Shown: positions 3,681-17,528, counted from the first letter of the stretch. The stretch is DNA of 32,000 nucleotides from Synechocystis sp. PCC 6803 substr. PCC-P (GCF_000284455.1 NC_017039.1:2910001-2942000), one strand, 5' to 3'. Made by a program: numbers and translations. Notes: generated by a model from the sequence alone, not told the origin.

Positions 3681-4838
3681 TCAAACGGCGGCGATTGGAT
3701 AATCTCTGGACTGATCCGTTTCCACTTCCCTATCCACTGCTCCCTGGTAGGTATCCACCACATGGTTGGGTAAGATGTCCCCTCCTTGGCTGAGGAAACT
3801 CCAACTTTGCCCGACATGGACATAGGTGCCTAACCCCGTAGTGGGGGGCAGGAGGGGAATCACGTCTGCGAGGTTAACAATACGGTAACTGTTGGGCACT
3901 TGGCGGGAATGGAGTTGGGCAAAGGTCACATCGCCGACCCTGGGGCAGGCATAGCTATAAAGTTGAATCTGGGACCGTAAGTTGGGGAGGTTAACCGCTA
4001 GATCCAACGCCGCCAGCACCGCCAGGGAAGCCCCCAAACTATGGCCAGTGACGTAACAGGGCACGGCCGGGTCTAACTGCTGGGCAATTTCCCTCGGAAT
4101 GGGACTGACAATACGGAGATAATTTTCGATAAAGCCCTGGTGAATTTTGCCAAAATATTGCCCCGATCGCCGTTCGGTGAAGGGAATTTGTTGGGCCCGG
4201 AGATTATTGACCCATTCCATGGTGGTTTGGGTACCCCGAAAAACAATGAGATTGCGGCGGGGAGAACTGAGGATAAAACCCAGGTAAACGGGGATTTCCT
4301 GGGTTACTTTGACCACTTGACGAATGGTTTCCCCCAGGGAATCTTCCGCTTGGTCCCAGGTTTTATCTAAGGGGTCACCGGTATTATCCAGGGGAATTTG
4401 CACCGCAACGGATTCGGAAATGTGAGCTTCCCTACCGCGAAAAGAAGCAATTTGTTTATACTCATCCAGGTCGGAGCTATAGGCCGGTAACTGGCGAATA
4501 TTGCCGTCGTAGCTAGGGATGGTTTTCCCAGTTAAGTATTGCTGGGTGGCGATTTTACTGCAACGGATCAGCAATTGGGAAATTTGGCGATCGTAGGGCA
4601 GGATAGGGGGAGTGAGCCTAACACTGTTAATAATTTCCTCGCCCCGGTAAATTTTTTCCGCATCCGCTTCAAAGGCGGCATTTAACATGCTGGTGCGGTC
4701 GGTGTTGGCCGCTTGGGCTTTGGCTAATGCCTGTAATTCCCTGATTTCCTGGCGATGGCGTTCCTCCCGGCCTATGGTGAATGCTCCCCCCAGGGCCACT
4801 CCCCCCAGCAATAGTCGGCGGCGGTTAAAGATGCCCAT
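3681..4838 (-). CDS. Class 3 (alpha/beta-hydrolase) lipase with twin-arginine signal peptide
   Basis: Nucleophile elbow GHSLGAS within VTGHSLGASLAVLAALDL. The preferred start is the ATG at 4838 (MGIFNRRRLLLGGVALGGAFTIG, Tat-like RRR plus hydrophobic core). The longer ORF to 4958 would run through the upstream gene. Confidence 0.8.
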   Translation of the reverse strand: MGIFNRRRLLLGGVALGGAFTIGREERHRQEIRELQALAKAQAANTDRTSMLNAAFEADAEKIYRGEEIINSVRLTPPILPYDRQISQLLIRCSKIATQQYLTGKTIPSYDGNIRQLPAYSSDLDEYKQIASFRGREAHISESVAVQIPLDNTGDPLDKTWDQAEDSLGETIRQVVKVTQEIPVYLGFILSSPRRNLIVFRGTQTTMEWVNNLRAQQIPFTERRSGQYFGKIHQGFIENYLRIVSPIPREIAQQLDPAVPCYVTGHSLGASLAVLAALDLAVNLPNLRSQIQLYSYACPRVGDVTFAQLHSRQVPNSYRIVNLADVIPLLPPTTGLGTYVHVGQSWSFLSQGGDILPNHVVDTYQGAVDREVETDQSRDYPIAAV

Positions 4839-5322
4839 GGTTGATGCTCTCCTGGTCGGGCTGGACTGGTTGATGGAAACGATGCCCCAAAGCGCCATTG
4901 GCATAGTACTGGTTGGTGCTTTGGCCCAACATCCAAGTGAGGGTAAACAGCCCCGCAAAGCCTTTAAAACTGTCGAAATAGGGCACCCAAATCCCGATCG
5001 CCAGTAGGGTGACCCAAACCACAGCGGCGGTAATTACTGCGCCAATGGCCCCAAAAATGTTACCGGCGATCGCCAACAGGTCTTGGCCCCGGGGAAATTG
5101 CCAAATCTTACCAATGTCCCGGCACATCTTCACCAGCAGAAATAACACCAACAGCAAGCGCAGGGAATAGTAACCGGCGATCGGCAACAGAGTAATTAAA
5201 CTGGTGCCCAAGGCGTAATCGAAAACTAAATCCCTGGCCTGCTTGGCCCGGTGCAGATTTTTTTGCCAAAGTTCGACGGTTGACTGCACCATGTTTTCAA
5301 ACCTTTCAAACTGGAATGGCAA
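4825..5322 (-). CDS. Hypothetical integral membrane protein (3-4 predicted helices)
   Basis: 165-aa ORF with hydrophobic segments: LGTSLITLLPIAGYYSLRLLLVLFLLV, IAGNIFGAIGAVITAAVVWVTLLAIGIWV and FAGLFTLTWML. Its stop (4825-4827) overlaps the lipase start by 14 nt. I recognise no family. Confidence 0.6.
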   Translation of the reverse strand: MPFQFERFENMVQSTVELWQKNLHRAKQARDLVFDYALGTSLITLLPIAGYYSLRLLLVLFLLVKMCRDIGKIWQFPRGQDLLAIAGNIFGAIGAVITAAVVWVTLLAIGIWVPYFDSFKGFAGLFTLTWMLGQSTNQYYANGALGHRFHQPVQPDQESINHGHL

Positions 5323-7533: not shown

Positions 7534-9051
7534 GTGATTGCACAAATTAATCCACCACCACAAGGACCAGGGCCCCAGGCGATCGCCAATGTGCTTGAAC
7601 AATGGCATTTCCTGAACATTTGGCTGTTTGAAACACTGAATACTCCCATCTTCAAATTGGGCACTGAAAGCATCACTTTATGGTGGATTATTCAAGCCTG
7701 TTTTCTCCTTTTGCTGGTAGGAGTATTCGCCAAAGCTACTAAACAATTCCTAAAAAAGTTCCTACTGCTCAAACTTAGATTTAGTGAAGGTAACCGAGAA
7801 GTAATTGGTACATTAACTAGTTTGGGGGTGGCCGTATTAGGCTTTATCGTTGTATTGCAAGCCATGGGCTTGGAACTAGCTAGCTTTGCAGTAATTATGG
7901 GGGGACTAGGGATTGGCATTGGTTTTGGCTTGCAGGAATTAACTAGGAATTTAGTCAGTGGTTTGACAATTTTCGGCGAAAATAAACTTAAAGTTGGTGA
8001 CTTAATTGAATTTAATAATCACATTGGTTACATCAAGGAAATTTCCATTCGCTCTACCATCATCCGTACCTTTAGAGGTAGTGACCTAGTGGTGCCCAAC
8101 ACGGATTTAACCAGCAATTTAGTTGTTAACTGGAATTATGAAAATTGTAGTGGCCGCCTGGAAGTACCAGTTAGTGTGGAATATGGCAGTGACCTAGTTT
8201 TGGTCACGGAAGTGCTATTGGAATCCGCCGCCATGGAAAAAAATATTGTCAGCGAGCCCGCACCAAAAGCAGTTTTCCTTGGATTTGGGGACAATTCTCT
8301 TAATTTTGAACTCTGGGTTTGGACTGAAAGAATTGACCAAAGATTTCTCATCTTTAGCTCCCTTAATCACATCATTCAATATAATTGTCGTCGTCGAGGA
8401 ATTAATATGCCCTTTCCCCAAAGGGATATCTGGTTGAGAAATCCAGAAAGTATCTGTCTAGCAGTTAGTGATCAAGACAACAACGCTACAGTCCCCGGGA
8501 AAGAAGTAGGTGAATCCCCTACCCTCACTCAGCTACTGAAGAAAAACTTCTGCTTTCAAAAACTCAACGATCTTGAAATTAGAAATGTGATTGAAATGGG
8601 TAAACGATGGCATTTACAGCCAGGAGAAATTTTAATTAAACAAAACCAATACCACAGCTATTTTTGTATTGTGCTAACTGGGGCGATAGATGCAATTTAT
8701 GAAAATGAAAAAATTAGCAACCGTATATTTACTTTCAAACAGGGAGAATTCTTTGGTGAGTTGCCATTAATGTTAGAAATTCCCTATCCCACTACTATGA
8801 TAGCGGCCGAAGATTCCACTTTATTTTTGATTGGGAAAGATTGTTTTCATATATTGTTAGCAAACCATCCCCAACTATCAAATCTTGTCGCAGAAGAATT
8901 GGGTAAGCGCCAGGATGCTCTCCAGGGCTATGAACAAAAACTGAAAGAAATGGGACTACTCGAAGAGGCAGATCTAAAGAACCCGGTGGAATGGATTCGG
9001 CAAAGAATTAATAAGATTTTTGGTGTCAGTCAAGAATCTGCATATCGTTAA
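7534..9051 (+). CDS. MscS-family mechanosensitive channel fused to a C-terminal cyclic-nucleotide-binding domain
   Basis: GTG start; there is no in-frame ATG before the first transmembrane helix. MscS pore/beta-domain signature: GLGIGIGFGLQELTRNLVSGLTIFGENKLKVGDLIEF...IRTFRGSDLVVPN. The C-terminal cNMP-binding fold includes FFGELPL. This architecture is known as the bCNG-type channel. Confidence 0.85.
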   Translation: MIAQINPPPQGPGPQAIANVLEQWHFLNIWLFETLNTPIFKLGTESITLWWIIQACFLLLLVGVFAKATKQFLKKFLLLKLRFSEGNREVIGTLTSLGVAVLGFIVVLQAMGLELASFAVIMGGLGIGIGFGLQELTRNLVSGLTIFGENKLKVGDLIEFNNHIGYIKEISIRSTIIRTFRGSDLVVPNTDLTSNLVVNWNYENCSGRLEVPVSVEYGSDLVLVTEVLLESAAMEKNIVSEPAPKAVFLGFGDNSLNFELWVWTERIDQRFLIFSSLNHIIQYNCRRRGINMPFPQRDIWLRNPESICLAVSDQDNNATVPGKEVGESPTLTQLLKKNFCFQKLNDLEIRNVIEMGKRWHLQPGEILIKQNQYHSYFCIVLTGAIDAIYENEKISNRIFTFKQGEFFGELPLMLEIPYPTTMIAAEDSTLFLIGKDCFHILLANHPQLSNLVAEELGKRQDALQGYEQKLKEMGLLEEADLKNPVEWIRQRINKIFGVSQESAYR

Positions 9052-9192
9052 ACCTATTTACGTTGTCGCCATACATTGACCTTAAATAAACCTCCAGCTT
9101 TCCTATTTTTATGAAAGATCAGAGGCTATCGCTCTTCTATCATTGTGGGTAGGATAAAATGGAGAAGATAGTCTGAAATGCAGAGGTGGTAT

Positions 9193-9420
9193 ATGGTTGC
9201 CCCACGTGAAGCAAAAGAAACAGTATAATTCATTGACAAATACTGCGAAGGATACAGAGACTTATTTCCAGAAGTGAGAAGCTTTGAATACTTTAAATAC
9301 TTGCATCTAGGATTAATTGCGAATATAAAGAGAAAAACCTTCCCAGAAATAGCTAAGGTAGTAGGACTAGAAAATGGACAAGGATTTGACTATTTCTTCG
9401 GTAACAGCCCTTGGTCGTTA
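9193..9420 (+). pseudogene. 5' fragment of a decayed IS701-like (DDE) transposase gene, interrupted by the IS at 9421
   Basis: Translation gives MVAPREAKETV*FIDKYCEGYRDLFPEVRSFEYFKYLHLGLIANIKRKTFPEIAKVVGLENGQGFDYFFGNSPWSL. This matches the usual IS701-family N-terminal pattern (F..F..LF...F..YL.GL....RK....IA......Q....F...SPW). An in-frame TAA lies at 9226-9228. Confidence 0.6.
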
Positions 9421-10285
9421 GAGCGTGTTTGAAAAGTAGGGTGAAGAATGGAAAATGGTGAAAAGAATAAAATTTTCACCATAATTAATGATAATCCGAG
9501 AATTTTACAGCACGGACATCACTGATAGCCAGTGGCAATTGGTAGAACCTCATTTACCCAAAGCAAAAACTGGGGGAAGAAAACGGAAAACTAGTCTGAG
9601 GGAGATACTCAATGCTATTTTTTACATGCTCAGAACGGGGTGTGCCTGGCGACTTCTGCCCCATGATTTTCCTAAATGGCGAACGGTCTATGGTTATTTC
9701 CAGCAATGGCACGAAGATGGTACCTGGAAAAAATTAAACCGTATCTTCCGTGAGAAAGTTCGGCTCAAAGCTGGAAGAAATACTCACCCTAGTGCCGGTT
9801 GTTTAGATTCACAGTCACTTAAAAAGGCTGGAACTGGCCAAGAAACTGGCTATGACGGCGGAAAAAAGGTCAATGGTCGTAAACGTACAATCCTCGTGGA
9901 TACCATGGGATTACTTCTCGATGTTGTCGGTGCCCATCGCTCTGACCATCAGGGTCTGATTCTACTTGGCACCTGGTTTGCTCCCCTGTGGCAGTGCCTG
10001 CAAGTTATATGGACTGACAGCACCTTTGGCGGAAAGGATTTTATTTTCTGGGTGGAGCATACTTTTGGTTGGACCTTGAATGTGGTCAGCAAAAAGCAGG
10101 GACAAAAAGGCTTTGAAGTCCTACCCCGCCGTTGGGTAGTCGAGCGCACTTTTGCTTGGTTTGGTCGTTATCGTCGTTTAAGCAAAGATTATGAATATTT
10201 ACCTACCACCAGTGAGACAATGCTCTATGTTGCCATGGTTCATCTCATGCTTCAAAGGCTTGCTTAAAACTTTTCAAACACTTTC
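9421..10285 (+). mobile_element. Intact small IS5-family (IS427/IS1031-like) insertion sequence, 865 bp
   Basis: The left end is GAGCGTGTTTGAAAAGT (9421-9437). The reverse complement of the right end is GAAAGTGTTTGAAAAGT (10269-10285), matching 15 of 17 with a perfect 13-bp core. It is flanked by direct TTA at 9418-9420 and 10286-10288. It carries a single transposase ORF. Confidence 0.85.
9488..10267 (+). CDS. IS5-family DDE transposase
   Basis: The N-terminal region has the pattern typical of IS427/IS1031-group transposases: TDSQWQLVEPHLPKAKTGGRKRKTSLREILNAIFYMLRTGCAWRLLPHDFPKWRTVYGYFQQWHEDGTW. The C-terminal DDE region includes VERTFAWFGRYRRLSKDYE. Confidence 0.9.
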   Translation: MIIREFYSTDITDSQWQLVEPHLPKAKTGGRKRKTSLREILNAIFYMLRTGCAWRLLPHDFPKWRTVYGYFQQWHEDGTWKKLNRIFREKVRLKAGRNTHPSAGCLDSQSLKKAGTGQETGYDGGKKVNGRKRTILVDTMGLLLDVVGAHRSDHQGLILLGTWFAPLWQCLQVIWTDSTFGGKDFIFWVEHTFGWTLNVVSKKQGQKGFEVLPRRWVVERTFAWFGRYRRLSKDYEYLPTTSETMLYVAMVHLMLQRLA

Positions 10286-10288
10286 TTA

Positions 10289-10597
10289 CAAAAAGTAGAT
10301 AAAATTGCATGGTTGATATTTAATGAATACCTAAAAGGATTTGCCGAAGTCGCTACTATTCCAGAAGAAGGAACTGGGTATATTGATAAGCTTTACATAT
10401 CAAAGAGACGATATTTACAACCAGCTAAAGTTAACATCAAAATCTTAGATTCTAATTGTAGTGTTTGGCTTCCTTTTGGAAAATCGCTTGAATTTAAAAA
10501 CTATGTAGATGCAAAAGAAGAAATTAAGAAACGTTTAAATAATGCTGGTTTTTCAAGTATAAAAATTTCCTTTAAGCAGGAATCAATTATTTCTTAA
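10289..10597 (+). pseudogene. 3' continuation of the decayed IS701-like transposase gene (truncated)
   Basis: This segment is in frame with 9229-9420 once the IS and one TTA copy are removed (...GNSPWSL|QKVDKIAWLIFNEYLK...). EEGTGYIDK and RRYLQPAKVNIKILDSNCSVWL weakly resemble the IS701 DDTG..KKG and RQY.G..GK..NCQ motifs. It ends after about 100 codons, far short of a full transposase. Confidence 0.45.
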
Positions 10598-10734
10598 AAA
10601 TTAGTAGAGGATTTTAGACAACCTCGGTTGATCGAACAGAAAAATATAAAAAATATCCTATTGGAGTGACAGAGAAAATCACTTTTTATCCAACACCTGT
10701 GTCGACTTATATTGATCATTGTTTCCATCCATAC

Positions 10735-11187
10735 TCAAGGCATGGCCCCAGCACCAATTAAGAGGGAAACCCGATCACCGCCCACTTCCTTCAAGCTAGA
10801 GAGAATTTCAATGGCACTTTGATAGGGAACGTCCCCTGACACCCGCAGGTAAACGTAGCGCTGGGGGGACTGTTGCAAATAGTTAGGTAACTGCTGTAGA
10901 AGTTGAGCTTTTTCCACAGGGCGATCATTTACCGAGAGTTTTCCCCCTGGGTGTAACACCACTGGGAGAAATTGCGGCTCTTCCGGGTTTTCTAATGGCG
11001 CTTCGGCGGATTGGACCTCCGTAGTTTCAGCTTCCTGGGGTAAACGAACCAGCAAAGATGCTCCCTCTTCCGCTAGGTTGGCGGCAACGGCGACAAAAAA
11101 GGCCAACACGACCAGCATCACATTGAGCATGGGGGTAATTTCTAGTTCCGGCAATTTGTCCCGGTCTTGTCGGTGTCTAAATTTCAT
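10735..11187 (-). CDS. exbD: ExbD/TolR-family protein, paralogue 2, with Asn at the conserved transmembrane Asp position
   Basis: LEITPMLNVMLVVLAFFV aligns with E. coli ExbD INVTPFIDVMLVLLIIFMV. A periplasmic domain follows (YVYLRVSGDVPYQSAIEILSSLKEVG). ATGA start/stop overlap with the upstream exbD. Confidence 0.85.
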   Translation of the reverse strand: MKFRHRQDRDKLPELEITPMLNVMLVVLAFFVAVAANLAEEGASLLVRLPQEAETTEVQSAEAPLENPEEPQFLPVVLHPGGKLSVNDRPVEKAQLLQQLPNYLQQSPQRYVYLRVSGDVPYQSAIEILSSLKEVGGDRVSLLIGAGAMP

Positions 11188-11627
11188 AGCTCTGGGTCTG
11201 ATTTATGAACCACCAAAAGGACCCGATCGCCGCCTACTTCCACCATTTGGACTAATAAATCATCCACTTGACGATAGTTTAACTGTCCGTCCACCGTTAA
11301 CCTCACCTCACCCTGGGGATGGGTCGCTAAAAAGGTGGCGATCGCCGTTAATAATTTATCCCTTTCGACGATATTGCCTCCCAGCAAAACGTCACCCTGA
11401 CGATTTAAACCCACATCTAAACTAGGTGCCTTGACCTTTGTTTGGGGGGATGAATCCTCTTCTTTGGCAAAACCGCCTGCGCTCTCCGGTGGCTCTAGAT
11501 CGGCGATCACCCTACCAGTCAAAGACATGGTTAAAATTACAAAAAAGGTTAATACCGACATCAAGACATCAATCATCGGTACTAAATTAATCCCTGGAGT
11601 CCTTGCCCCCCTGACTCGGCTTTTCAT
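11184..11627 (-). CDS. exbD: ExbD/TolR-family protein, paralogue 1 (canonical transmembrane Asp)
   Basis: INLVPMIDVLMSVLTFFVI carries the conserved Asp. Periplasmic domain: VRLTVDGQLNYRQVDDLLVQMVEVG. It starts 3 nt after the exbB stop. Confidence 0.9.
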   Translation of the reverse strand: MKSRVRGARTPGINLVPMIDVLMSVLTFFVILTMSLTGRVIADLEPPESAGGFAKEEDSSPQTKVKAPSLDVGLNRQGDVLLGGNIVERDKLLTAIATFLATHPQGEVRLTVDGQLNYRQVDDLLVQMVEVGGDRVLLVVHKSDPEL

Positions 11628-11630
11628 CGG

Positions 11631-12341
11631 TTATGGCTCAGCAATTCTAGCCGCCATTAATAAATTGGGCATTGGCTGATGAGGTTCGTACCAGACCTCA
11701 CGGTAAATAAGTTCTAATTCACTGCCCACTGCGGCAAAATAATCCATTTGTTGGGACTGTAAACTGACCAAAACCCTAAATACTAACAGGGCAAAAATCG
11801 CCACCATCATCCCCGCTGCCGTGGTAATCAACGCTTCTCCAATGCCCGAGGCGGCCTGGGTAGCCTCCGCACTGGAGCCTCCTCCCCCGATATTGAGATT
11901 GTTAAAAGTGCGAATTAAGCCCGTTACGGTGCCTAACAAGCCCAAGAGAGGAGCTAGGGCAATGATAGTTTCCAGGAGTTTATCCCCCCGTCGCATTCGG
12001 GCAAATTCTTTATCGGCGGTGGCTTCCATGGCCAAACGGAAAGTTTCTGGACTAGGATGGCGTAGTTTAAGGGGAGCCAGCAGAAAACGACCAATGGCTA
12101 AATGTCGAGCATGTTCAGCAATTTCCCGAGCCTTTACCAAATCCTCAACCGCCGCATCGAGCACATCCCGCACAACCTGGTCTTCTTGAATCAGTAGGCG
12201 ACTCCAAAACCAACCTCGTTCGAAGGCAGTGGTAAGGGCAAGGATGGACAGCAGTAACAAAGGAAACATCACTACCCCTCCCTTAAGAAACTCATCGAGT
12301 AGCCGCGGAGTTTGAGTCAAAAACAGGGGGGATGGGGCCAT
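11631..12341 (-). CDS. exbB: ExbB/TolQ/MotA-family proton-channel protein
   Basis: Motifs APLLGLLGTVTGLIRTF and GEALITTAAGMMVAIFALLVF. The preferred start is the ATG at 12341 (MAPSPLF...). The longer ORF starts at a GTG at 12395, inside the AT-rich putative operator region. Confidence 0.9.
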   Translation of the reverse strand: MAPSPLFLTQTPRLLDEFLKGGVVMFPLLLLSILALTTAFERGWFWSRLLIQEDQVVRDVLDAAVEDLVKAREIAEHARHLAIGRFLLAPLKLRHPSPETFRLAMEATADKEFARMRRGDKLLETIIALAPLLGLLGTVTGLIRTFNNLNIGGGGSSAEATQAASGIGEALITTAAGMMVAIFALLVFRVLVSLQSQQMDYFAAVGSELELIYREVWYEPHQPMPNLLMAARIAEP

Positions 12342-12365
12342 GGACAGAAAACAGGGAAATTTTCT

Positions 12366-12442
12366 AAATAATAATCTCTTGCAATTATCCAGCACAAGTG
12401 CTTCAATAATTTATGGATTATTGCACTTTATTTGCAATAAAG
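12366..12442. promoter_or_regulatory. Cluster of AT-rich inverted repeats / Fur-box-like elements in the exbB-futA2 divergent intergenic region
   Basis: CAATAAT-ttatgg-ATTATTG lies at 12404-12423 and CTTTATT-tgc-AATAAAG at 12426-12442. The motif T[GC]CAAT[AT]A recurs four times on both strands. ATAATC/GATTAT hexamers, as in the Fur consensus GATAATGATAATCATTATC, are present. The cluster lies 25-100 nt upstream of the exbB ATG. Confidence 0.4.
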
Positions 12443-12606
12443 TTGACTATCCGAGGTTGACCCACTCCAGATGCCCATTAAGCTATCTATCACTAGCCAA
12501 ACAAGCCCAGACATGGGGCCTAGTTCGGATTAAGGGGACTGGGTTGAGCCTGCACTATTGATTACTTTCATTTTAAATTGCCCACTATCCATTGCCCTAG
12601 ACTTCG

Positions 12607-13647
12607 ATGACAACTAAGATTTCCCGGCGGACTTTTTTTGTGGGCGGCACCGCCCTCACTGCCCTAGTGGTAGCTAATTTGCCCCGGCGGGCCTCTGCCC
12701 AGTCCCGCACGATCAACCTCTATTCTTCACGGCATTACAACACCGATGATGCCCTCTACGATGCTTTTGGCGAGGTTAACCTCATTGAGGCCAGTGCCGA
12801 AGAACTGATTGAGCGTATCCAAAGTGAAGGGGCTAATAGTCCAGGGGATATTTTATTCACCGTAGATGCCGGTATGTTATGGCGGGCGGAACAGGCGGGA
12901 CTTTTCCAACCGGTGCGCAGCGGCAAGCTGAATGAGCGCATTCCCGAAAATTTGCGCCACCCTGATGGGCTATGGTATGGCTTCACCCAGAGAGCCCGGG
13001 TGTTGTATTACAGTCGCGACCGGGTCAATCCAGCGGATCTCTCCACCTACGAAGCCCTGGCGGATCCCCAATGGCGAGGAAAAATTCTGGTGCGCCCTTC
13101 CAGTAATGTATATAACCTTTCCCTAACTGCTTCCCGCATTGCCATCCATGGAGAGCCAGAAACCCGCCGCTGGTTACAAGGCTTGGTGGGTAACTTTGCC
13201 CGGCAACCGGAGGGTAATGACACGGCACAAATTCGTGCTATTGCCGCCGGCATCGGAGATGTGGCGATCGCCAATAGCTACTACTATATCCGCCTGCAAA
13301 AGTCCACCGATCCCGCCGATCAAGAAGTGGTGGAAAAAGTCAGCCTTTTCTTTCCAAACACTGGCTCCGGAGAGCGGGGAACCCATGTCAATGTCAGTGG
13401 GGCTGGGGTGCTGAAAAATGCCCCCAATCGAGACGCGGCGATCGCCTTCCTGGAATATCTAGCCAGTGATGACGCCCAACGTTATTTTGCTGAGGGCAAC
13501 AATGAGTATCCGGTAATTCCAGGGGTACCCATTGATCCTGTGCTAGCCGCCCATGGCCAACTAAAAGGAGACCCCCTCAATGTTTCTAACTTGGGACGTT
13601 ACCAACCCGATTCAGCTCGTTTAATGAATGAAGTTGGCTGGCAGTAA
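12607..13647 (+). CDS. futA2: Periplasmic ferric-iron-binding protein of the Fut ABC transporter (FutA2/IdiA-like), Tat signal
   Basis: 346 aa. Twin-arginine signal SRRTFFVGGTALTALVV...ASA. Iron-binding SBP fold motifs: INLYSSRHYNTDDALYDAF and ANSYYY. I recognise it as Synechocystis FutA2 from memory. Confidence 0.9.
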   Translation: MTTKISRRTFFVGGTALTALVVANLPRRASAQSRTINLYSSRHYNTDDALYDAFGEVNLIEASAEELIERIQSEGANSPGDILFTVDAGMLWRAEQAGLFQPVRSGKLNERIPENLRHPDGLWYGFTQRARVLYYSRDRVNPADLSTYEALADPQWRGKILVRPSSNVYNLSLTASRIAIHGEPETRRWLQGLVGNFARQPEGNDTAQIRAIAAGIGDVAIANSYYYIRLQKSTDPADQEVVEKVSLFFPNTGSGERGTHVNVSGAGVLKNAPNRDAAIAFLEYLASDDAQRYFAEGNNEYPVIPGVPIDPVLAAHGQLKGDPLNVSNLGRYQPDSARLMNEVGWQ

Positions 13648-13685
13648 TGCAAAAAAAATTGGACAATTGCCGGAGTTTGGCCTCT

Positions 13686-13710
13686 GATTATTGCATATAA
13701 ATTGCATATA
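13686..13710. promoter_or_regulatory. Tandem 11-bp direct repeat (ATTGCATATAA/ATTGCATATAG) preceded by GATTATTGCA
   Basis: ATTGCATATA occurs at 13690-13699 and again at 13701-13710. The 10-mer GATTATTGCA (13686-13695) is identical to 12416-12425 in the exbB/futA2 operator region. Confidence 0.3.
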
Positions 13711-13819
13711 GGGGTTAGAACACGATATGGTTTTGGCAGGATCAAACGCCGTTCTCAAACTTTCAGAGGTACGGTGTTTTTGTTGCCAGTCTTCTGTTTC
13801 TTCCCTTTTTTTGGATTCC

Positions 13820-14614
13820 ATGTGGCCCCTCTCCTGGCATCAGTTAAAATTTCCCCTAGCATTTATCTGTGCTTCTACAATCCATGGAGGGTTACTCTGG
13901 TTACCCTTGCCCCCCCCAGCAGCGGAGTTGGAGCCTCTCCCCCCCCCATCAAAGGATTCTGCTTCCGAGGCGATCGCCACAGTGCCCCTCGCCGACCTAG
14001 TGACACCGGCCCCCATGGCAGAACCTCCGCCAAAGAAATCCCCCCAAGTTTTAGCGCCTCTCCCTGGGTCTCAATCTGTTCGTGAAGTAGTGCCTGATGT
14101 TATAGCGCCACCACCATCTCCTCCCCAAACCACTCCTCTACCGAAAGCCTCCCCTAAAGCAGTAAAGGCACCCCAGGGCGAACCGAATCAAAGGCAGGAC
14201 AACGAAAAAATTGAGCCTGAATCGGTTCCAGAATCCCGCTCTGACCAAGGGCAGGAGGTTGAGAATGAGATTAAAAGTATTGAACCCTCCTCCTTCCCTC
14301 AGCCTAAGAGGGAACTCATCGCTGGCATTGCCCACTTAGAAGGAGCTCAATCAGGATGCTACGGCTCAGAGGATTGTCATTTTCTGGCAGGGGCCACGGT
14401 GCGGGACGTCACCCAAGACCTCCAAGCCCGTTTGGAGGCACAAGGCTTCCGTCTGAGTGAGAGTTATCGAGATACGGGATTGCGGGTATATGAGGTTTAT
14501 CGGCAAGACAAACTACCCCAATTTCTCCACATCGTCAGTGATAATGCGGGACGGGATGCGTTTTATCTTCTCTCCCCCCAACAAAAAACCTTAGAGGAAC
14601 TTAGATCGCAATGA
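13820..14614 (+). CDS. Membrane-anchored Pro-rich protein with TonB-like N-terminus and an unrecognised C-terminal domain
   Basis: The ATG at 13820 gives MWPLSWHQLKFPLAFICASTIHGGLLWLPLPPP. This is a single transmembrane helix with an IHG motif, followed by ~130 aa rich in Pro/Lys/Glu and a ~100-aa C-terminal globular region. An alternative ATG at 13727 would add a T-rich, Cys-rich leader that looks non-coding. Confidence 0.65.
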   Translation: MWPLSWHQLKFPLAFICASTIHGGLLWLPLPPPAAELEPLPPPSKDSASEAIATVPLADLVTPAPMAEPPPKKSPQVLAPLPGSQSVREVVPDVIAPPPSPPQTTPLPKASPKAVKAPQGEPNQRQDNEKIEPESVPESRSDQGQEVENEIKSIEPSSFPQPKRELIAGIAHLEGAQSGCYGSEDCHFLAGATVRDVTQDLQARLEAQGFRLSESYRDTGLRVYEVYRQDKLPQFLHIVSDNAGRDAFYLLSPQQKTLEELRSQ

Positions 14615-15111
14615 ATAACAAAAAACTCAGCCTAACCCTGCCATTGGTAGGAATCCTAGCTCTGACGGCTTGTAATCAGCCCAAGGAAGAAATTGATCCC
14701 CTATCCCAGTTGCGGGAGAAAGGGGAATGTCTTGATTGCAATCTAGCGGGGGCAGACCTGCGGGAGTTTAATTTGGAAAATGCCCGCTTGAACCGTTCTG
14801 ATTTATCGGGGGCAAATTTATCGGGGGTGAATTTACGGCGGGCGTTGTTGGACCGGGCCAACTTGACAGGGGCAAATCTGAGTGAAACGGATTTAACCGA
14901 AGCGGCCTTAACTGAAGCCAATCTGGCCGGGGCGGATTTGAGCGGCGCTAATTTGGAACGGAGTTTTCTGCGGGATGTGGATTTAACTGGAGCTAATCTG
15001 AAAGGAGCCAACCTAGCCTGGGCCAATTTAACGGCGGCCAACTTAACCGATGTCGATTTGGAGGAGGCGGAATTTTGGGAAACAACCATGCCCGATGGTT
15101 CTCGTCGTTAA
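14611..15111 (+). CDS. Pentapeptide-repeat lipoprotein
   Basis: Signal peptide with lipobox LTAC. About 20 consecutive A(D/N)LxG-type pentapeptides follow (CNLAGADLREFNLENARLNRSDLSGANLSGVNL...). ATGA overlap with the upstream gene. Confidence 0.85.
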   Translation: MNNKKLSLTLPLVGILALTACNQPKEEIDPLSQLREKGECLDCNLAGADLREFNLENARLNRSDLSGANLSGVNLRRALLDRANLTGANLSETDLTEAALTEANLAGADLSGANLERSFLRDVDLTGANLKGANLAWANLTAANLTDVDLEEAEFWETTMPDGSRR

Positions 15112-17528
15112 CGGGGAACGGGACAAGTCTCTTCCCGGACAATTTCCATTAAGCGATGGAAACGCACAGGTTTAACTAATAATTCGTTGGTGGCAATTTC
15201 TAGTTGGGCAATGTTACTTTTTGTCTGTTCTGTGGCATCCACTAAGGCAATAATTGTGATGGGGCTAGAGCCGAAAAATTTACGAATTTCATCCAATTTA
15301 TCCTTCACTTCTTCCCCGGTATTGGCTAAATCCATCACCAATACATGGCAGGATTGATCACCGATTTTGACTAATTGGGTTAATTCCGCTGCGGTTGGAT
15401 AAAGACAATTTAACCATTGCATTTGGTATCCTTTAGCTCGGAAATAACTACTTAGGGTGGTGGCATAGGCAGAATTTTTACTAATTAAAGTGATGATTAT
15501 CGGAGTCGGACTGCCGTGATTAGTAACCTCCACCAGTTGCCCCCGGTGGCGCGGCCCATCTTTATCTTGAAAAACACAGGGAATGGTAATCTTAAAACGA
15601 CTGCCCTCATTGAGCTTGCTGGTCACTGTCACTGAGCCGCCATGGAGTTCAACAATTTTTTTCACTAAAGATAAGCCCAATCCAGTGCCGTCATAGCGAC
15701 GGTTAAGGGCGCTATCAATCTGCACAAACGGCTCAAAAATATTGTTTAGTCTATCCGCCTCAATGCCAATGCCAGTATCGAAAACAGTGAAACTTAACTG
15801 TGGTGGCGACTGGCTATTTTCTTTCCCCTGCTCCTTTATTAAGTCAGCCTGTACGACTACTTTTCCCCCTTCTGGGGTAAATTTAATGGCGTTATTCAGT
15901 AGGTTAATTAAAACTTGACAAAGTCGTCGCTTATCCACTAGCACATCAGGCAAATTGGGAATAATTTCAGACGACAAATTAATTTGTTTTTGGATCGCAA
16001 ATTGTTGGACAAAAGTTAAACTATGATTGACCAATGCTGACACGCTGGTGGGGTTTAAATCCAAATCCATTCTGCCCGCTTCAATTTTAGAAAGGTCAAG
16101 AATATCATTAATTAATGAAAGTAAGTGTCGGCCACTATTTTCTACTATTTCTAACGACTGGACTTGTTTACCGTTGAGGGGACCATAAACTTGGTTTTGT
16201 AGAGTCTCTATCATGCCCAAAATGGAGTTGAGGGGAGTGCGTAATTCGTGGCTCATATTGGCCAGAAATTCGTCTTTGAGTTGAGTGGCTTTGGCTAAAA
16301 TTTTGTTGGAAAGTTTTAGTTGTTCTTCTGCTTTTTTAATCTCCGTAATATCGGCGATCGTACCGATAATTTTCACAAATGCCTCCCCTTGTTCCTGATG
16401 GATTTGCCCCCGCAACAAACAATGATAAATTTCCCCATTGGCCGCTTCCAAACGGAGTTCTGTGGATAGTTCCATGGTGGGATCTTCCAAGCTTTGCTCA
16501 ATGGCCTGCCAAAACATTGGGCGATCGCCAAGGTGAATGAAAAAATCCCCATCTGCCGGTTCAAGGGGTTGCTCAAAGCCAAGCCAAGTAATCAAATTGG
16601 GGTCCACTTCAAAGTAGTGTATTTTAGGCTGACATTCCCACACCCATACCCTTGTGGCCTGGGAAGCTAATTCATAGCGTTGGGCAATTTCCACATATTT
16701 TCTTTCGGCAATTTCTAGGGCTTCTCGTTGATAAATCTGCAATTGATTGAAGGTCTGCACCAGGGTTTGGCCCAAAAAACCAATTTCATTGCTCGGTAGA
16801 GGGGGCAAATTAAACTGCTCAGTATTGTCATAGTTAATTAAGGCCCGGTGCAGTTTCCCCAAAGGGAGCAACACCGCATATCTAATTAATAACCCTAAAA
16901 GCAGGAGAATTACTACTATCCCAATAATGAACGAACCCACCACGAGCAAAAGTCCCTGGTTAACCTCTCGGTTTAATTCCTGTTTTGATAGAATGGTGAT
17001 TGCTACTCCCCGTCGGTGACTATTTTGATCACGGTAACTTTCTCCCTGCTCAGGGAAAGAGTAAGTGTTAAAGGGAAGAGCGTAAACCACCACTTCTTCT
17101 TCTTCAATTTGGGTAATTAGGGATTGGGGGATACCGCTGATGGAAACCTGTTCAAAAATAGGAAAAAGAGCTGGTGTGACTTGGGCATATTTTTCTCCCC
17201 GTACCATTTTTATTTCTCCACCATGGGCAATGAGAATGCCATTGGGATCAACGATTGAAATTGTTTGTACGTTGGGCCAAGTCGCATAGTTTTGGGCCAA
17301 ACGATTGAGGCGATAAACATCCTTGGTTTCCACCAAACCTTCCGCCGCAAACTCTAAACCTTCGGTTAATCGCTGGGCCCTTGTGATAATATTAATTCTT
17401 GATTTTTCTTGTAATTGTTGCCTGGTTAAAACTACGGCTATGGCGCTGGTGATCATCAAAATAAGGGCGCAACCAGCTAGCAACTGGTAACGGAGAGGCC
17501 GGGTAAAACGTGGTTTCTCCTGAACCAT
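15108..17528 (-). CDS. Hybrid sensor histidine kinase: TM, periplasmic domain, TM, HAMP, PAS, HisKA, HATPase_c and a degenerate receiver
   Basis: H-box MSHELRTPLNSILG, N-box LINLLNNAIKFTPEGG, G1 DTGIGI and G2 GTGLGLSLV are present. Two transmembrane segments flank a ~155-aa extracytoplasmic region. The C-terminal receiver-like fold has VLVMDL and LVKP. It may be the gene I recall as hik28, but I cannot verify that. Confidence 0.9.
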   Translation of the reverse strand: MVQEKPRFTRPLRYQLLAGCALILMITSAIAVVLTRQQLQEKSRINIITRAQRLTEGLEFAAEGLVETKDVYRLNRLAQNYATWPNVQTISIVDPNGILIAHGGEIKMVRGEKYAQVTPALFPIFEQVSISGIPQSLITQIEEEEVVVYALPFNTYSFPEQGESYRDQNSHRRGVAITILSKQELNREVNQGLLLVVGSFIIGIVVILLLLGLLIRYAVLLPLGKLHRALINYDNTEQFNLPPLPSNEIGFLGQTLVQTFNQLQIYQREALEIAERKYVEIAQRYELASQATRVWVWECQPKIHYFEVDPNLITWLGFEQPLEPADGDFFIHLGDRPMFWQAIEQSLEDPTMELSTELRLEAANGEIYHCLLRGQIHQEQGEAFVKIIGTIADITEIKKAEEQLKLSNKILAKATQLKDEFLANMSHELRTPLNSILGMIETLQNQVYGPLNGKQVQSLEIVENSGRHLLSLINDILDLSKIEAGRMDLDLNPTSVSALVNHSLTFVQQFAIQKQINLSSEIIPNLPDVLVDKRRLCQVLINLLNNAIKFTPEGGKVVVQADLIKEQGKENSQSPPQLSFTVFDTGIGIEADRLNNIFEPFVQIDSALNRRYDGTGLGLSLVKKIVELHGGSVTVTSKLNEGSRFKITIPCVFQDKDGPRHRGQLVEVTNHGSPTPIIITLISKNSAYATTLSSYFRAKGYQMQWLNCLYPTAAELTQLVKIGDQSCHVLVMDLANTGEEVKDKLDEIRKFFGSSPITIIALVDATEQTKSNIAQLEIATNELLVKPVRFHRLMEIVREETCPVPR

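Follow-up and report, generated by a model that had tools for sequence, protein, structure and literature searches.

Slr0514 of Synechocystis sp. PCC 6803, a candidate non-canonical TonB-type transducer from a cyanobacterial protein family linked to fut genes

The region at positions 10735-15111 of a 32-kb window of the Synechocystis sp. PCC 6803 genome (the window is the whole stretch of DNA analysed, and all coordinates are counted on it) contains six adjacent genes, ordered sll0479-sll0478-sll0477 <> slr0513 (futA2)-slr0514-slr0516 according to open reading frame (ORF) listing and a Pfam scan. The protein encoded by slr0514 is a candidate second, non-canonical TonB-type energy transducer. 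Judged by sequence comparison, it is the founding member of an unnamed, unannotated and widespread cyanobacterial family of at least 144 sequence clusters, which is new here. A functional link between this family and the Fut iron transport system is highly probable, and a coupling of Slr0514 to ExbB-ExbD is evenly balanced between yes and no. The best reading, which we consider to have about equal chances of being right or wrong, is that Slr0514 is a Fut-associated, probably ExbBD-docked, periplasm-spanning transducer. The locus is already known as a Fur-controlled iron-stress locus, including the iron induction of sll0477-79, slr0513 and slr0514 and the predicted Fur boxes. New are the family-level reading of slr0514 and slr0516, the synteny with fut genes and the conserved ExbD without the relay aspartate, for which no published description was found.

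An earlier interpretation made from the DNA alone (the sequence-only reading) had placed in this region exbB with two non-equivalent exbD genes, futA2, a gene for a protein with a TonB-like anchor, a Pro-rich spacer and a different C-terminal domain, and a translationally coupled pentapeptide lipoprotein gene, with neither a TonB-dependent transporter (TBDT) gene nor a TonB C-terminal domain in sight. This inventory was borne out by ORF listing, Pfam and exact matches. Exact-sequence look-up in PCC 6803 returned sll0479, sll0478, sll0477, 'Iron uptake protein A2' (FutA2, slr0513) and slr0514, the last under the product name 'hypothetical protein'. The futA2 gene (12607..13647, plus strand) encodes the periplasmic Fe(III)-binding protein and matches Pfam SBP_bac_8/6/1/11. 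The pentapeptide gene is most simply slr0516, which is described as lying just upstream of Hik28 (PMC9258054). Among the 26 larger ORFs scanned in the 32-kb window, Plug/TonB_dep_Rec and TonB_C were absent.

The slr0514 gene (13820..14614, plus strand) was delimited from homologues, RefSeq and profiles. Its start was corrected to 13820 from 13727, as homologues are 241-267 amino acids (aa) long and the RefSeq protein has 264 aa. The ORF at 13727-14614 has no Pfam match. A word-indexed homologue search with full-length Slr0514 returned only 10 Synechocystis-like clusters, and a family profile returned 25 clusters in the same type of search, with a candidate list swamped by the Pro-rich spacer. 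The family was uncovered only by a head-only profile (the C-terminal ~105 residues) searched against 1.84 billion representative proteins, which returned 144 clusters (50% identity) at E <= 1e-3, including 16 at <= 1e-10. Most members have 230-300 aa with the head at the C terminus, and some, of 350-380 aa, carry an additional C-terminal domain. The common architecture is a short basic N-terminus, a transmembrane (TM) helix, a Pro-rich or acidic spacer and the head. The TM motif of the family is (S/A)-x3-H-[GSA]-x2-[LF]-x2-P, and the head opens with FPH..GA..GC-x5-C-[HRWQY]. Slr0514 itself has an N-in TM anchor of the form (S/A)-x3-H-G-x2-L-x2-P, a spacer of ~130 residues and a ~100-aa head with H-x7-C-x5-C-H. 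In an alignment of 55 members, with a mean column identity of 22%, His22, Pro29 and Cys186 (the second Cys) are invariant and S/A-x3-H-G is near-universal. Pro makes up 15% of Slr0514 and 9-23% of most other sequences in the family. Every source-named member is cyanobacterial and annotated 'hypothetical protein'; the taxa named are Synechocystis, Sodalinema/[Phormidium], Leptolyngbya, Phormidesmis, Vacuolonema, Oculatellaceae, Elainellaceae, Coleofasciculaceae, Spirulina, Pseudanabaena and Leptothermofonsia.

The anchor of Slr0514 appears TonB-like in sequence. The hhalign comparison placed the family S-x3-H in register with S16/H20 of Escherichia coli TonB (score 18.5) and with S18/H22 of TolA (19.2). 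In a control with 80 long window ORFs, slr0514 itself scored 41.1 and the best of the other 79 scored 13.5. The single TM segment with its His is followed by the Pro-rich spacer, which is predicted to be disordered by AlphaFold2 (AF2). The full-length AF2 model is poor (pLDDT 52), and a Foldseek search with that model was uninformative. The head-only AlphaFold model is better defined (pLDDT 84.5, pTM 0.77) and comprises a beta-hairpin, a helix, a four-stranded sheet and a short helix, with the two conserved Cys within or adjacent to the hairpin, where they are assumed to form a disulfide staple. Because different residues (H/R/W/Q/Y) follow the second Cys, heme attachment through C-x5-C-H was discarded as a property of the family.

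By sequence and by modelled fold, the head of Slr0514 is not a TonB C-terminal domain. TonB_C was matched by neither Slr0514 nor any of the 55 family members in Pfam or NCBIfam, and no TonB C-terminal domain was among the 50 matches listed by Foldseek for the head model against the PDB. PDB sequence and profile searches with the head also gave no meaningful match. The topology of the head (hairpin, helix, four strands) is compatible with PepSY, and no PepSY entry was recognised among the listed Foldseek matches. The candidates with Foldseek E ~0.1 (spermine synthase N-domain, BamC C-domain, Flpp3 and KA1) were not adopted as its fold family.

Genomic context links the family to fut genes. The loci compared with the window are labelled L001-L023. 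Outside the Synechocystis/Sodalinema clade, 10 loci were compared, which had been picked by sequence pattern or assembly fragment size and not by context. In all 10, a fut gene adjoins the family gene or lies within about two genes of it, in at least six arrangements and often with fur as well. For example, futA is divergent from the family gene in L008, L009 and L012, and lies immediately upstream on the same strand in L010. L011, L013 and L014 share the order dps-type ferritin ... futA-fur <> 87-aa ORF-family gene, and L014 also has idiB-, idiC- and isiA-like genes nearby. L021, from Leptolyngbya FACHB-261, has the order futB-pentapeptide-repeat protein (PRP)-futA <> family gene-futC-exbB-exbD, L022 has fur <> family gene-futB-PRP-futA, and L023 has family gene-futC-futB. 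The futB and futC calls rest on Pfam domains, namely a fused double BPD_transp_1 (557-596 aa) and ABC_tran plus TOBE_2, respectively. The conserved association is that of the Slr0514 family with Fut, and the pentapeptide lipoprotein is a second, less frequent companion. The likeness to FutABC/IdiA loci, which include futA2 as a defined component, is that clusters of futA/B/C, fur, dps, idiB and isiA contain or adjoin the family gene and the PRP gene. Slr0514 and Slr0516 are not part of the Fut system in the literature descriptions consulted. Two further observations concern these loci. A conserved ORF of 87-89 aa with one predicted TM segment (WSHWLL...SAWGL) and no family assignment lies directly upstream of the family gene, opposite fur-futA, at 6668-6931 in L011, 5850-6113 in L013 and 6226-6495 in L014. 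In L009, the family gene has an isiA-like CP43' gene on one side and a pair of MbnP/MbnH (di-haem peroxidase) genes on the other (4134-5072, 8414-10746), a further metal-acquisition context.

The position of fur next to the family gene in L011, L013, L014 and L022, together with the histidine kinase gene hik28 immediately downstream of the block in Synechocystis, brings up the explanation that Slr0514 is a FecR-like or anti-sigma-like transmembrane signalling component, which would report the state of periplasmic iron or FutA2 to the cytoplasm. The cytoplasmic part of Slr0514 is just ~10-20 residues long and holds no domain, leaving nothing to transmit such a signal, and no sigma or anti-sigma domain was matched in Slr0514 or the 55 members in Pfam and NCBIfam. 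We consider a signalling role very improbable indeed.

Nine more loci (L001-L007, L017, L018), from Synechocystis and from Sodalinema/[Phormidium] and 'Oscillatoria' assemblies, keep the whole six-gene block. The flanks of the block vary, with gdhA or glmS upstream and hik28 or plsY downstream. NCBI taxonomy places Synechocystis (Synechococcales) and Sodalinema (Oscillatoriales) in different orders. Between the window and L002, L004-L007, L017 and L018, FutA2 is 84-85% identical and ExbB 83-88% identical despite different flanks. The identity of FutA2 and ExbB between differing flanks suggests that the six-gene block may have been transferred as a unit between Synechocystis and Sodalinema/[Phormidium]/'Oscillatoria'.

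For the family proper, adjacency to exbBD occurs in two arrangements, namely the Synechocystis/Sodalinema block and L021. L021 carries a single ExbD with Asp, so that the Asn-type ExbD is not required. A related arrangement was found in L015 (4443-8468) and L016 (240-3108), where a PBP_like_2 solute-binding protein that is not FutA-like, an anchor relative, exbB, exbD(Asp) and exbD(Asn) form an operon-like row. The 348-aa anchor relative has the same kind of anchor (RWLLARPMLLVAVGIHLLVL..LP) and an acidic spacer, and is without the two-Cys head. At its C terminus it has a domain that corresponds to the additional one in two-domain members of the family (BLASTP 3e-6). Such anchor proteins may work together with solute-binding proteins different from FutA.

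Slr0514 resembles TonB (TonB_C, PF03544) in its type-II single-pass anchor with the Ser/His register, its Pro-rich spacer, its iron regulation and its exbB-exbD neighbours in Synechocystis, Sodalinema and Leptolyngbya FACHB-261. It differs from TonB in having a two-Cys head in place of TonB_C, which is missing both by sequence and by fold. Moreover, the neighbours of the family are Fut ABC genes and not TBDT genes, and the Synechocystis stator has two non-equivalent ExbDs. The TonB-like proteins of Anabaena all retain the TonB-box-binding region (PMC8597729), and the Slr0514 family is therefore different from them.

The gene sll0477 (11631..12341, minus strand) encodes ExbB of the MotA/TolQ/ExbB proton-channel family (Pfam MotA_ExbB, 6e-32; PF01618, 110.5 bits against a cut-off of 22.9). 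In NCBIfam, every equivalog model (TolQ, ExbB) scored far under its cut-off, and no subfamily was assigned. The start of sll0477 is most likely at 12341, giving 236 aa as in the orthologues, and not at the GTG at 12395. The two ExbD genes follow closely. The gap between sll0477 and sll0478 is 3 nt (11627-11631), and the start of sll0479 overlaps the stop of sll0478 by 4 nt (11184-11187, ATGA-type). This tight packing makes it likely that both ExbDs are made in fixed proportion. The gene sll0478 (11184..11627, minus strand; Pfam ExbD 1.5e-17, exact match) encodes an ExbD with the canonical TM Asp, and sll0479 (10735..11187, minus strand; Pfam ExbD 6e-27, exact match) encodes a paralogue that matches PF02472 over residues 9-144 (94.6 bits against a cut-off of 25.4). 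In an alignment with E. coli ExbD, the position of D25 is Asp in sll0478 (VPMIDVLM) and Asn22 in sll0479 (TPMLNVML).

Neither the Asn of sll0479 nor any residue of its TM segment EITPMLNVMLVVLAFFV varies among 13 orthologues, which reach down to 39% identity. In a more distant exbB-exbD-exbD cluster, L019 (5995-6850), the relay position is occupied by Gly in the first ExbD (PMLGVMLVVLAFFV) and by Asp in the second, which is the reverse of the Synechocystis order. A similar exbB-exbD-exbD locus, L020 (6001-6879), was recognised by tblastn as the sister of L019. In L019 and L020 (tblastn only), the cluster has no Slr0514-family member or futA beside it. According to these alignments, the non-Asp ExbD (Asn or Gly) is a conserved paralogue, always paired with an Asp-ExbD, and not a decaying copy. 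No published case of a conserved ExbD that has lost the relay Asp is known to us or came up in a limited literature search. In E. coli, both ExbD D25N and TonB H20A are inactive, and the ExbB pentamer surrounds two ExbD helices (PMC11658791). The conserved non-Asp/Asp pair, the inactivity of D25N and the enclosure of two ExbDs by ExbB5 make a heteromeric ExbD axle with one carboxylate a reasonable inference. The conserved pair offers a natural test of whether both relay carboxylates are required in a 5:2 stator.

GltG and GltJ carry TonB_C domains. The TonB1-ExbB-ExbD1-ExbD2 and AglR-AglQ-AglS (GltG/GltJ) systems of Myxococcus, which serve TonB-like partners with unusual outputs, also combine one ExbB/TolQ-type protein with two different ExbD/TolR-type proteins, and 12 of the 55 Slr0514-family members weakly match GltJ. 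In contrast to these motors, one ExbD here is conserved without the relay Asp (Asn, or Gly in L019).

An operator block (12365..12445, unstranded; inverted repeats I1, I4, I7 and I8, and conservation) lies in the divergent exbB/futA2 promoter region. The spacer holds a cluster of Fur-box-like palindromes built on TTGCAATTAT / ATTATTGCA, for example CAATAAT-N6-ATTATTG at 12404-12423. A second block, the motif TGATTATTGCATATAAATTGCATATA (13684..13712, plus strand), lies between futA2 and slr0514 and is kept in 7 loci. The AT-rich operator-like motifs shared by the two blocks, noted by the sequence-only reading, are real. The exact 9-mer ATTATTGCA has just two occurrences in the window, one at 12417 and the other at 13687, the latter 40 nt downstream of the futA2 stop. 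With up to one mismatch, it has 12 window matches against 11.4 expected and is not above chance; 4 of the 12 fall within 62 nt (12380-12441). Both blocks are near-invariant in seven orthologous loci, in which the surrounding spacer has diverged. They probably correspond to the predicted Fur boxes of Riediger et al. In that Fur-regulon paper, the genes are named exbB, exbD3 and exbD4, a Fur box is given for the exbD3/D4 unit in 6803, and bidirectional Fur promoters are common in Synechocystis (PMC8634477). Iron regulation of sll0477-79, slr0513 and slr0514 has been published. TU3083 (sll0477-0479) and TU3085 (slr0513 alone) are iron-stress-induced units (PMC4195498), and slr0514 is among the significantly iron-induced 'unknown' genes, with log2 changes of 1.4-1.8 against 3.3-4.0 for slr0513 (PMC3516471).

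Between the second motif and slr0514, ~40 nt upstream of the slr0514 start, lies a terminator-like hairpin of 12-13 bp with a U-rich tract (13744..13787, plus strand). RNAalifold gave a consensus of 12 pairs for six loci (-13.7 kcal/mol) with no compensatory changes, and the single-sequence fold has -15.7 kcal/mol and z = -2.0. A consensus promoter/terminator scanner found no more sites than in shuffled sequences and missed the conserved hairpin. The hairpin is probably a leaky futA2 terminator or an attenuator; alternatively, it could form the 3' end of a small RNA. It fits the end of TU3085 after slr0513 and the weaker iron response of slr0514. A transcript starting at the Fur-box-like motif at 13684-13712 would run straight into this hairpin.

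Several points weigh against Slr0514 being a Fut-associated, ExbBD-docked transducer. Outside the clade, exbBD is absent from the surrounding ~7-8 kb in nine of the 10 fut-linked loci, and the adjacency in Synechocystis could reflect shared Fur control only. The context loci are phylogenetically non-independent. The anchor match to TonB and TolA spans just 14-16 residues with an hhalign probability of ~10%, and a PDB search with the anchor profile returned neither protein. The head has no significant PDB neighbour (best Foldseek E ~0.1), and PepSY_2 is matched weakly by 14 of the 55 members (best E 1.5e-4) and not by Slr0514 itself. The iron response of slr0514 is smaller than that of futA2 (PMC3516471). 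The canonical TonB Slr1484 and TBDTs already cover part of Fe' uptake (PMC7676907). The proposed link of Slr0514 to ExbB/ExbD, FutA2 or Slr0516 is suggested by gene adjacency. The interpretation given by the sequence-only reading is partly supported, with the emphasis shifted to the Fut system as the conserved partner. The combination of outcomes that it had named as a refutation was not seen. Iron induction of slr0514 is published, fut genes accompany the TonB-like gene at every locus examined, the PRP gene is present in two distant fut clusters, and exbB-exbD adjacency recurs in L021 and, for the anchor relative, in L015/L016. However, the linkage of the family to the Fut ABC system is stronger than that to ExbBD, and the hairpin that separates futA2 from slr0514 weakens the idea of one simple operon.

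These points bear on the main rival explanation, which we hold to be somewhat unlikely. According to it, the genes are co-regulated neighbours sharing a bidirectional Fur promoter, ExbB-ExbD-ExbD' serves TonB Slr1484 and TBDTs, and Slr0514 is a passive membrane-tethered Fut accessory, such as a FutA docking protein or holdase or a FutB assembly factor, whose TM His plays no part in coupling to the proton-motive force. The loci without exbBD, the frequency of bidirectional Fur promoters in Synechocystis, a head other than TonB_C and the terminator-like hairpin between futA2 and slr0514 all agree with this explanation. A passive tether would hardly explain why the TM His and S-x3-H-G are invariant or near-invariant in a family that is 22% identical, since these are the hallmark of TonB/TolA anchors. 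A long Pro-rich spacer is needless for an inner-membrane accessory. Adjacency to exbBD also recurs, rearranged, in L021, and for the anchor relative in L015/L016.

The gene slr0516 (14611..15111, plus strand) encodes a pentapeptide-repeat protein (Pfam Pentapeptide, 7e-35; 118.7 bits against a cut-off of 20.2) with tandem A(D/N)LXX repeats. An ATGA holds both its start and the stop of slr0514, and the same 4-nt overlap is found in L001-L003. Slr0516 is a predicted lipoprotein. Its lipobox, LTAC, lies at residues 18-21, and the lipobox Cys is invariant in 8 orthologues, including those in L021 and L022. The homologues in L021 (167 aa) and L022 (170 aa) are full-length, with 42-48% identity and E values of 4e-27 and 9e-34, and share with Slr0516 the lipobox Cys, a D-P pair, a C-x2-C and a C-terminal PDG. 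With these two distant clusters, the Slr0516-type lipoprotein gene is a second recurrent gene of fut clusters. The C-x2-C (residues 40/43, window 14728-14739) lies just ahead of the first repeat and is invariant to 42% identity; within a periplasmic iron module, it might serve as a redox or metal site. In the literature searched, slr0514/0515/0516 appear only in an iron microarray table (PMC3516471), apart from the Hik28 paper, where slr0516 is mentioned as a STRING neighbour of 'biopolymer transporters' (PMC9258054). YjbI, a secreted pentapeptide protein of Caulobacter, controls outer-membrane properties and the levels of TonB-dependent receptors (TBDRs) (PMC12864828). Slr0516 resembles YjbI as an exported pentapeptide-repeat protein tied to outer-membrane transport and TBDR biology, a likeness known for the repeats only. 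Unlike YjbI, it is a lipoprotein, has an invariant C-x2-C in front of the repeats and is encoded in iron-uptake clusters.

A motor, a spanning protein, a soluble periplasmic protein and a lipoprotein are also the parts of Tol-Pal. In a Tol-Pal-like envelope system, Slr0514 would be a TolA analogue and Slr0516 a Pal-like outer-membrane partner, maintaining tethering or permeability under iron stress and affecting iron entry indirectly. The anchor aligned with TolA S18/H22 and the parallel in topology are consistent with such a system, as is the outer-membrane role of YjbI in Caulobacter. The top NCBIfam matches of sll0477-79, as ExbB/ExbD paralogues, are TolQ and TolR, all far under cut-off, and weak matches among the 55 family members include tolA_full (6/55, best 0.007) and GltJ (12/55), which may come from the low-complexity spacer. 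However, Slr0514 has neither the long helical domain II nor domain III of TolA, its spacer is Pro-rich and disordered, and its head is unrelated. Neither TolB nor Pal has a homologue here, and the tight, repeated synteny is with futA/B/C and fur and not with division or envelope genes. A Tol-Pal-like system is improbable on these grounds.

If Slr0514 is a Fut-associated transducer, it would dock onto the ExbB pentamer through its His-containing helix. Inside this pentamer would sit, in Synechocystis, a heterodimer of ExbD(Asp) and ExbD(Asn) and, elsewhere, an ordinary ExbD dimer. The Pro-rich spacer would carry Slr0514 across the periplasm, where its head would act, using proton-motive force, on a FutA-dependent step of inorganic Fe(III) acquisition. 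The head might do so by opening or holding an outer-membrane entry route, or by loading or unloading FutA2, and the Slr0516 lipoprotein would be a likely envelope-side partner. We infer that the module could in this way energise FutA2-dependent iron acquisition. ExbB-ExbD is reported to be essential for inorganic iron uptake in Synechocystis (PMC7676907), a tie to which the sequence-only reading had also pointed, and the proposed mechanism would give these complexes a TBDT-independent and TonB_C-independent output.

Inorganic iron uptake limits cyanobacterial growth. In the current model for PCC 6803, a single TonB (Slr1484) is recognised, and residual Fe' uptake persists without TBDTs and is unexplained (PMC7676907). 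Slr0514 represents a concrete and testable candidate for this gap. A more far-reaching interpretation, which we regard as quite doubtful, is a third envelope-spanning machine beside Ton and Tol in cyanobacteria, which would use proton-motive force to drive the capture of inorganic Fe(III) by FutA without TBDTs. It would consist of an ExbB pentamer, an axle of ExbD(Asp) and ExbD(Asn or Gly), a Slr0514-type transducer with a two-Cys PepSY-like head, and Slr0516 at the outer membrane. If true, it would supply the missing link for the essential role of ExbB-ExbD in inorganic iron uptake. Slr0514-family genes lie beside fut genes across several cyanobacterial orders, and two 'hypothetical' families would gain an iron-uptake context that is missing from current annotation. 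As PCC 6803 is genetically tractable, the proposal is directly testable in a model organism.

Two observations concern the edges of the six-gene block. At one edge, slr0516 is convergent with hik28 (sll0474; 15108-17528, minus strand), and the two genes overlap by 4 nt at their stop codons (15108-15111). The abundance of FutA2 is reported to depend on Hik28 (PMC9258054). At the other edge, an IS4/5-family transposase gene (9488-10267; DUF4096 + DDE_Tnp_1) and two short ORFs without a family adjoin sll0479 (9274-10597).

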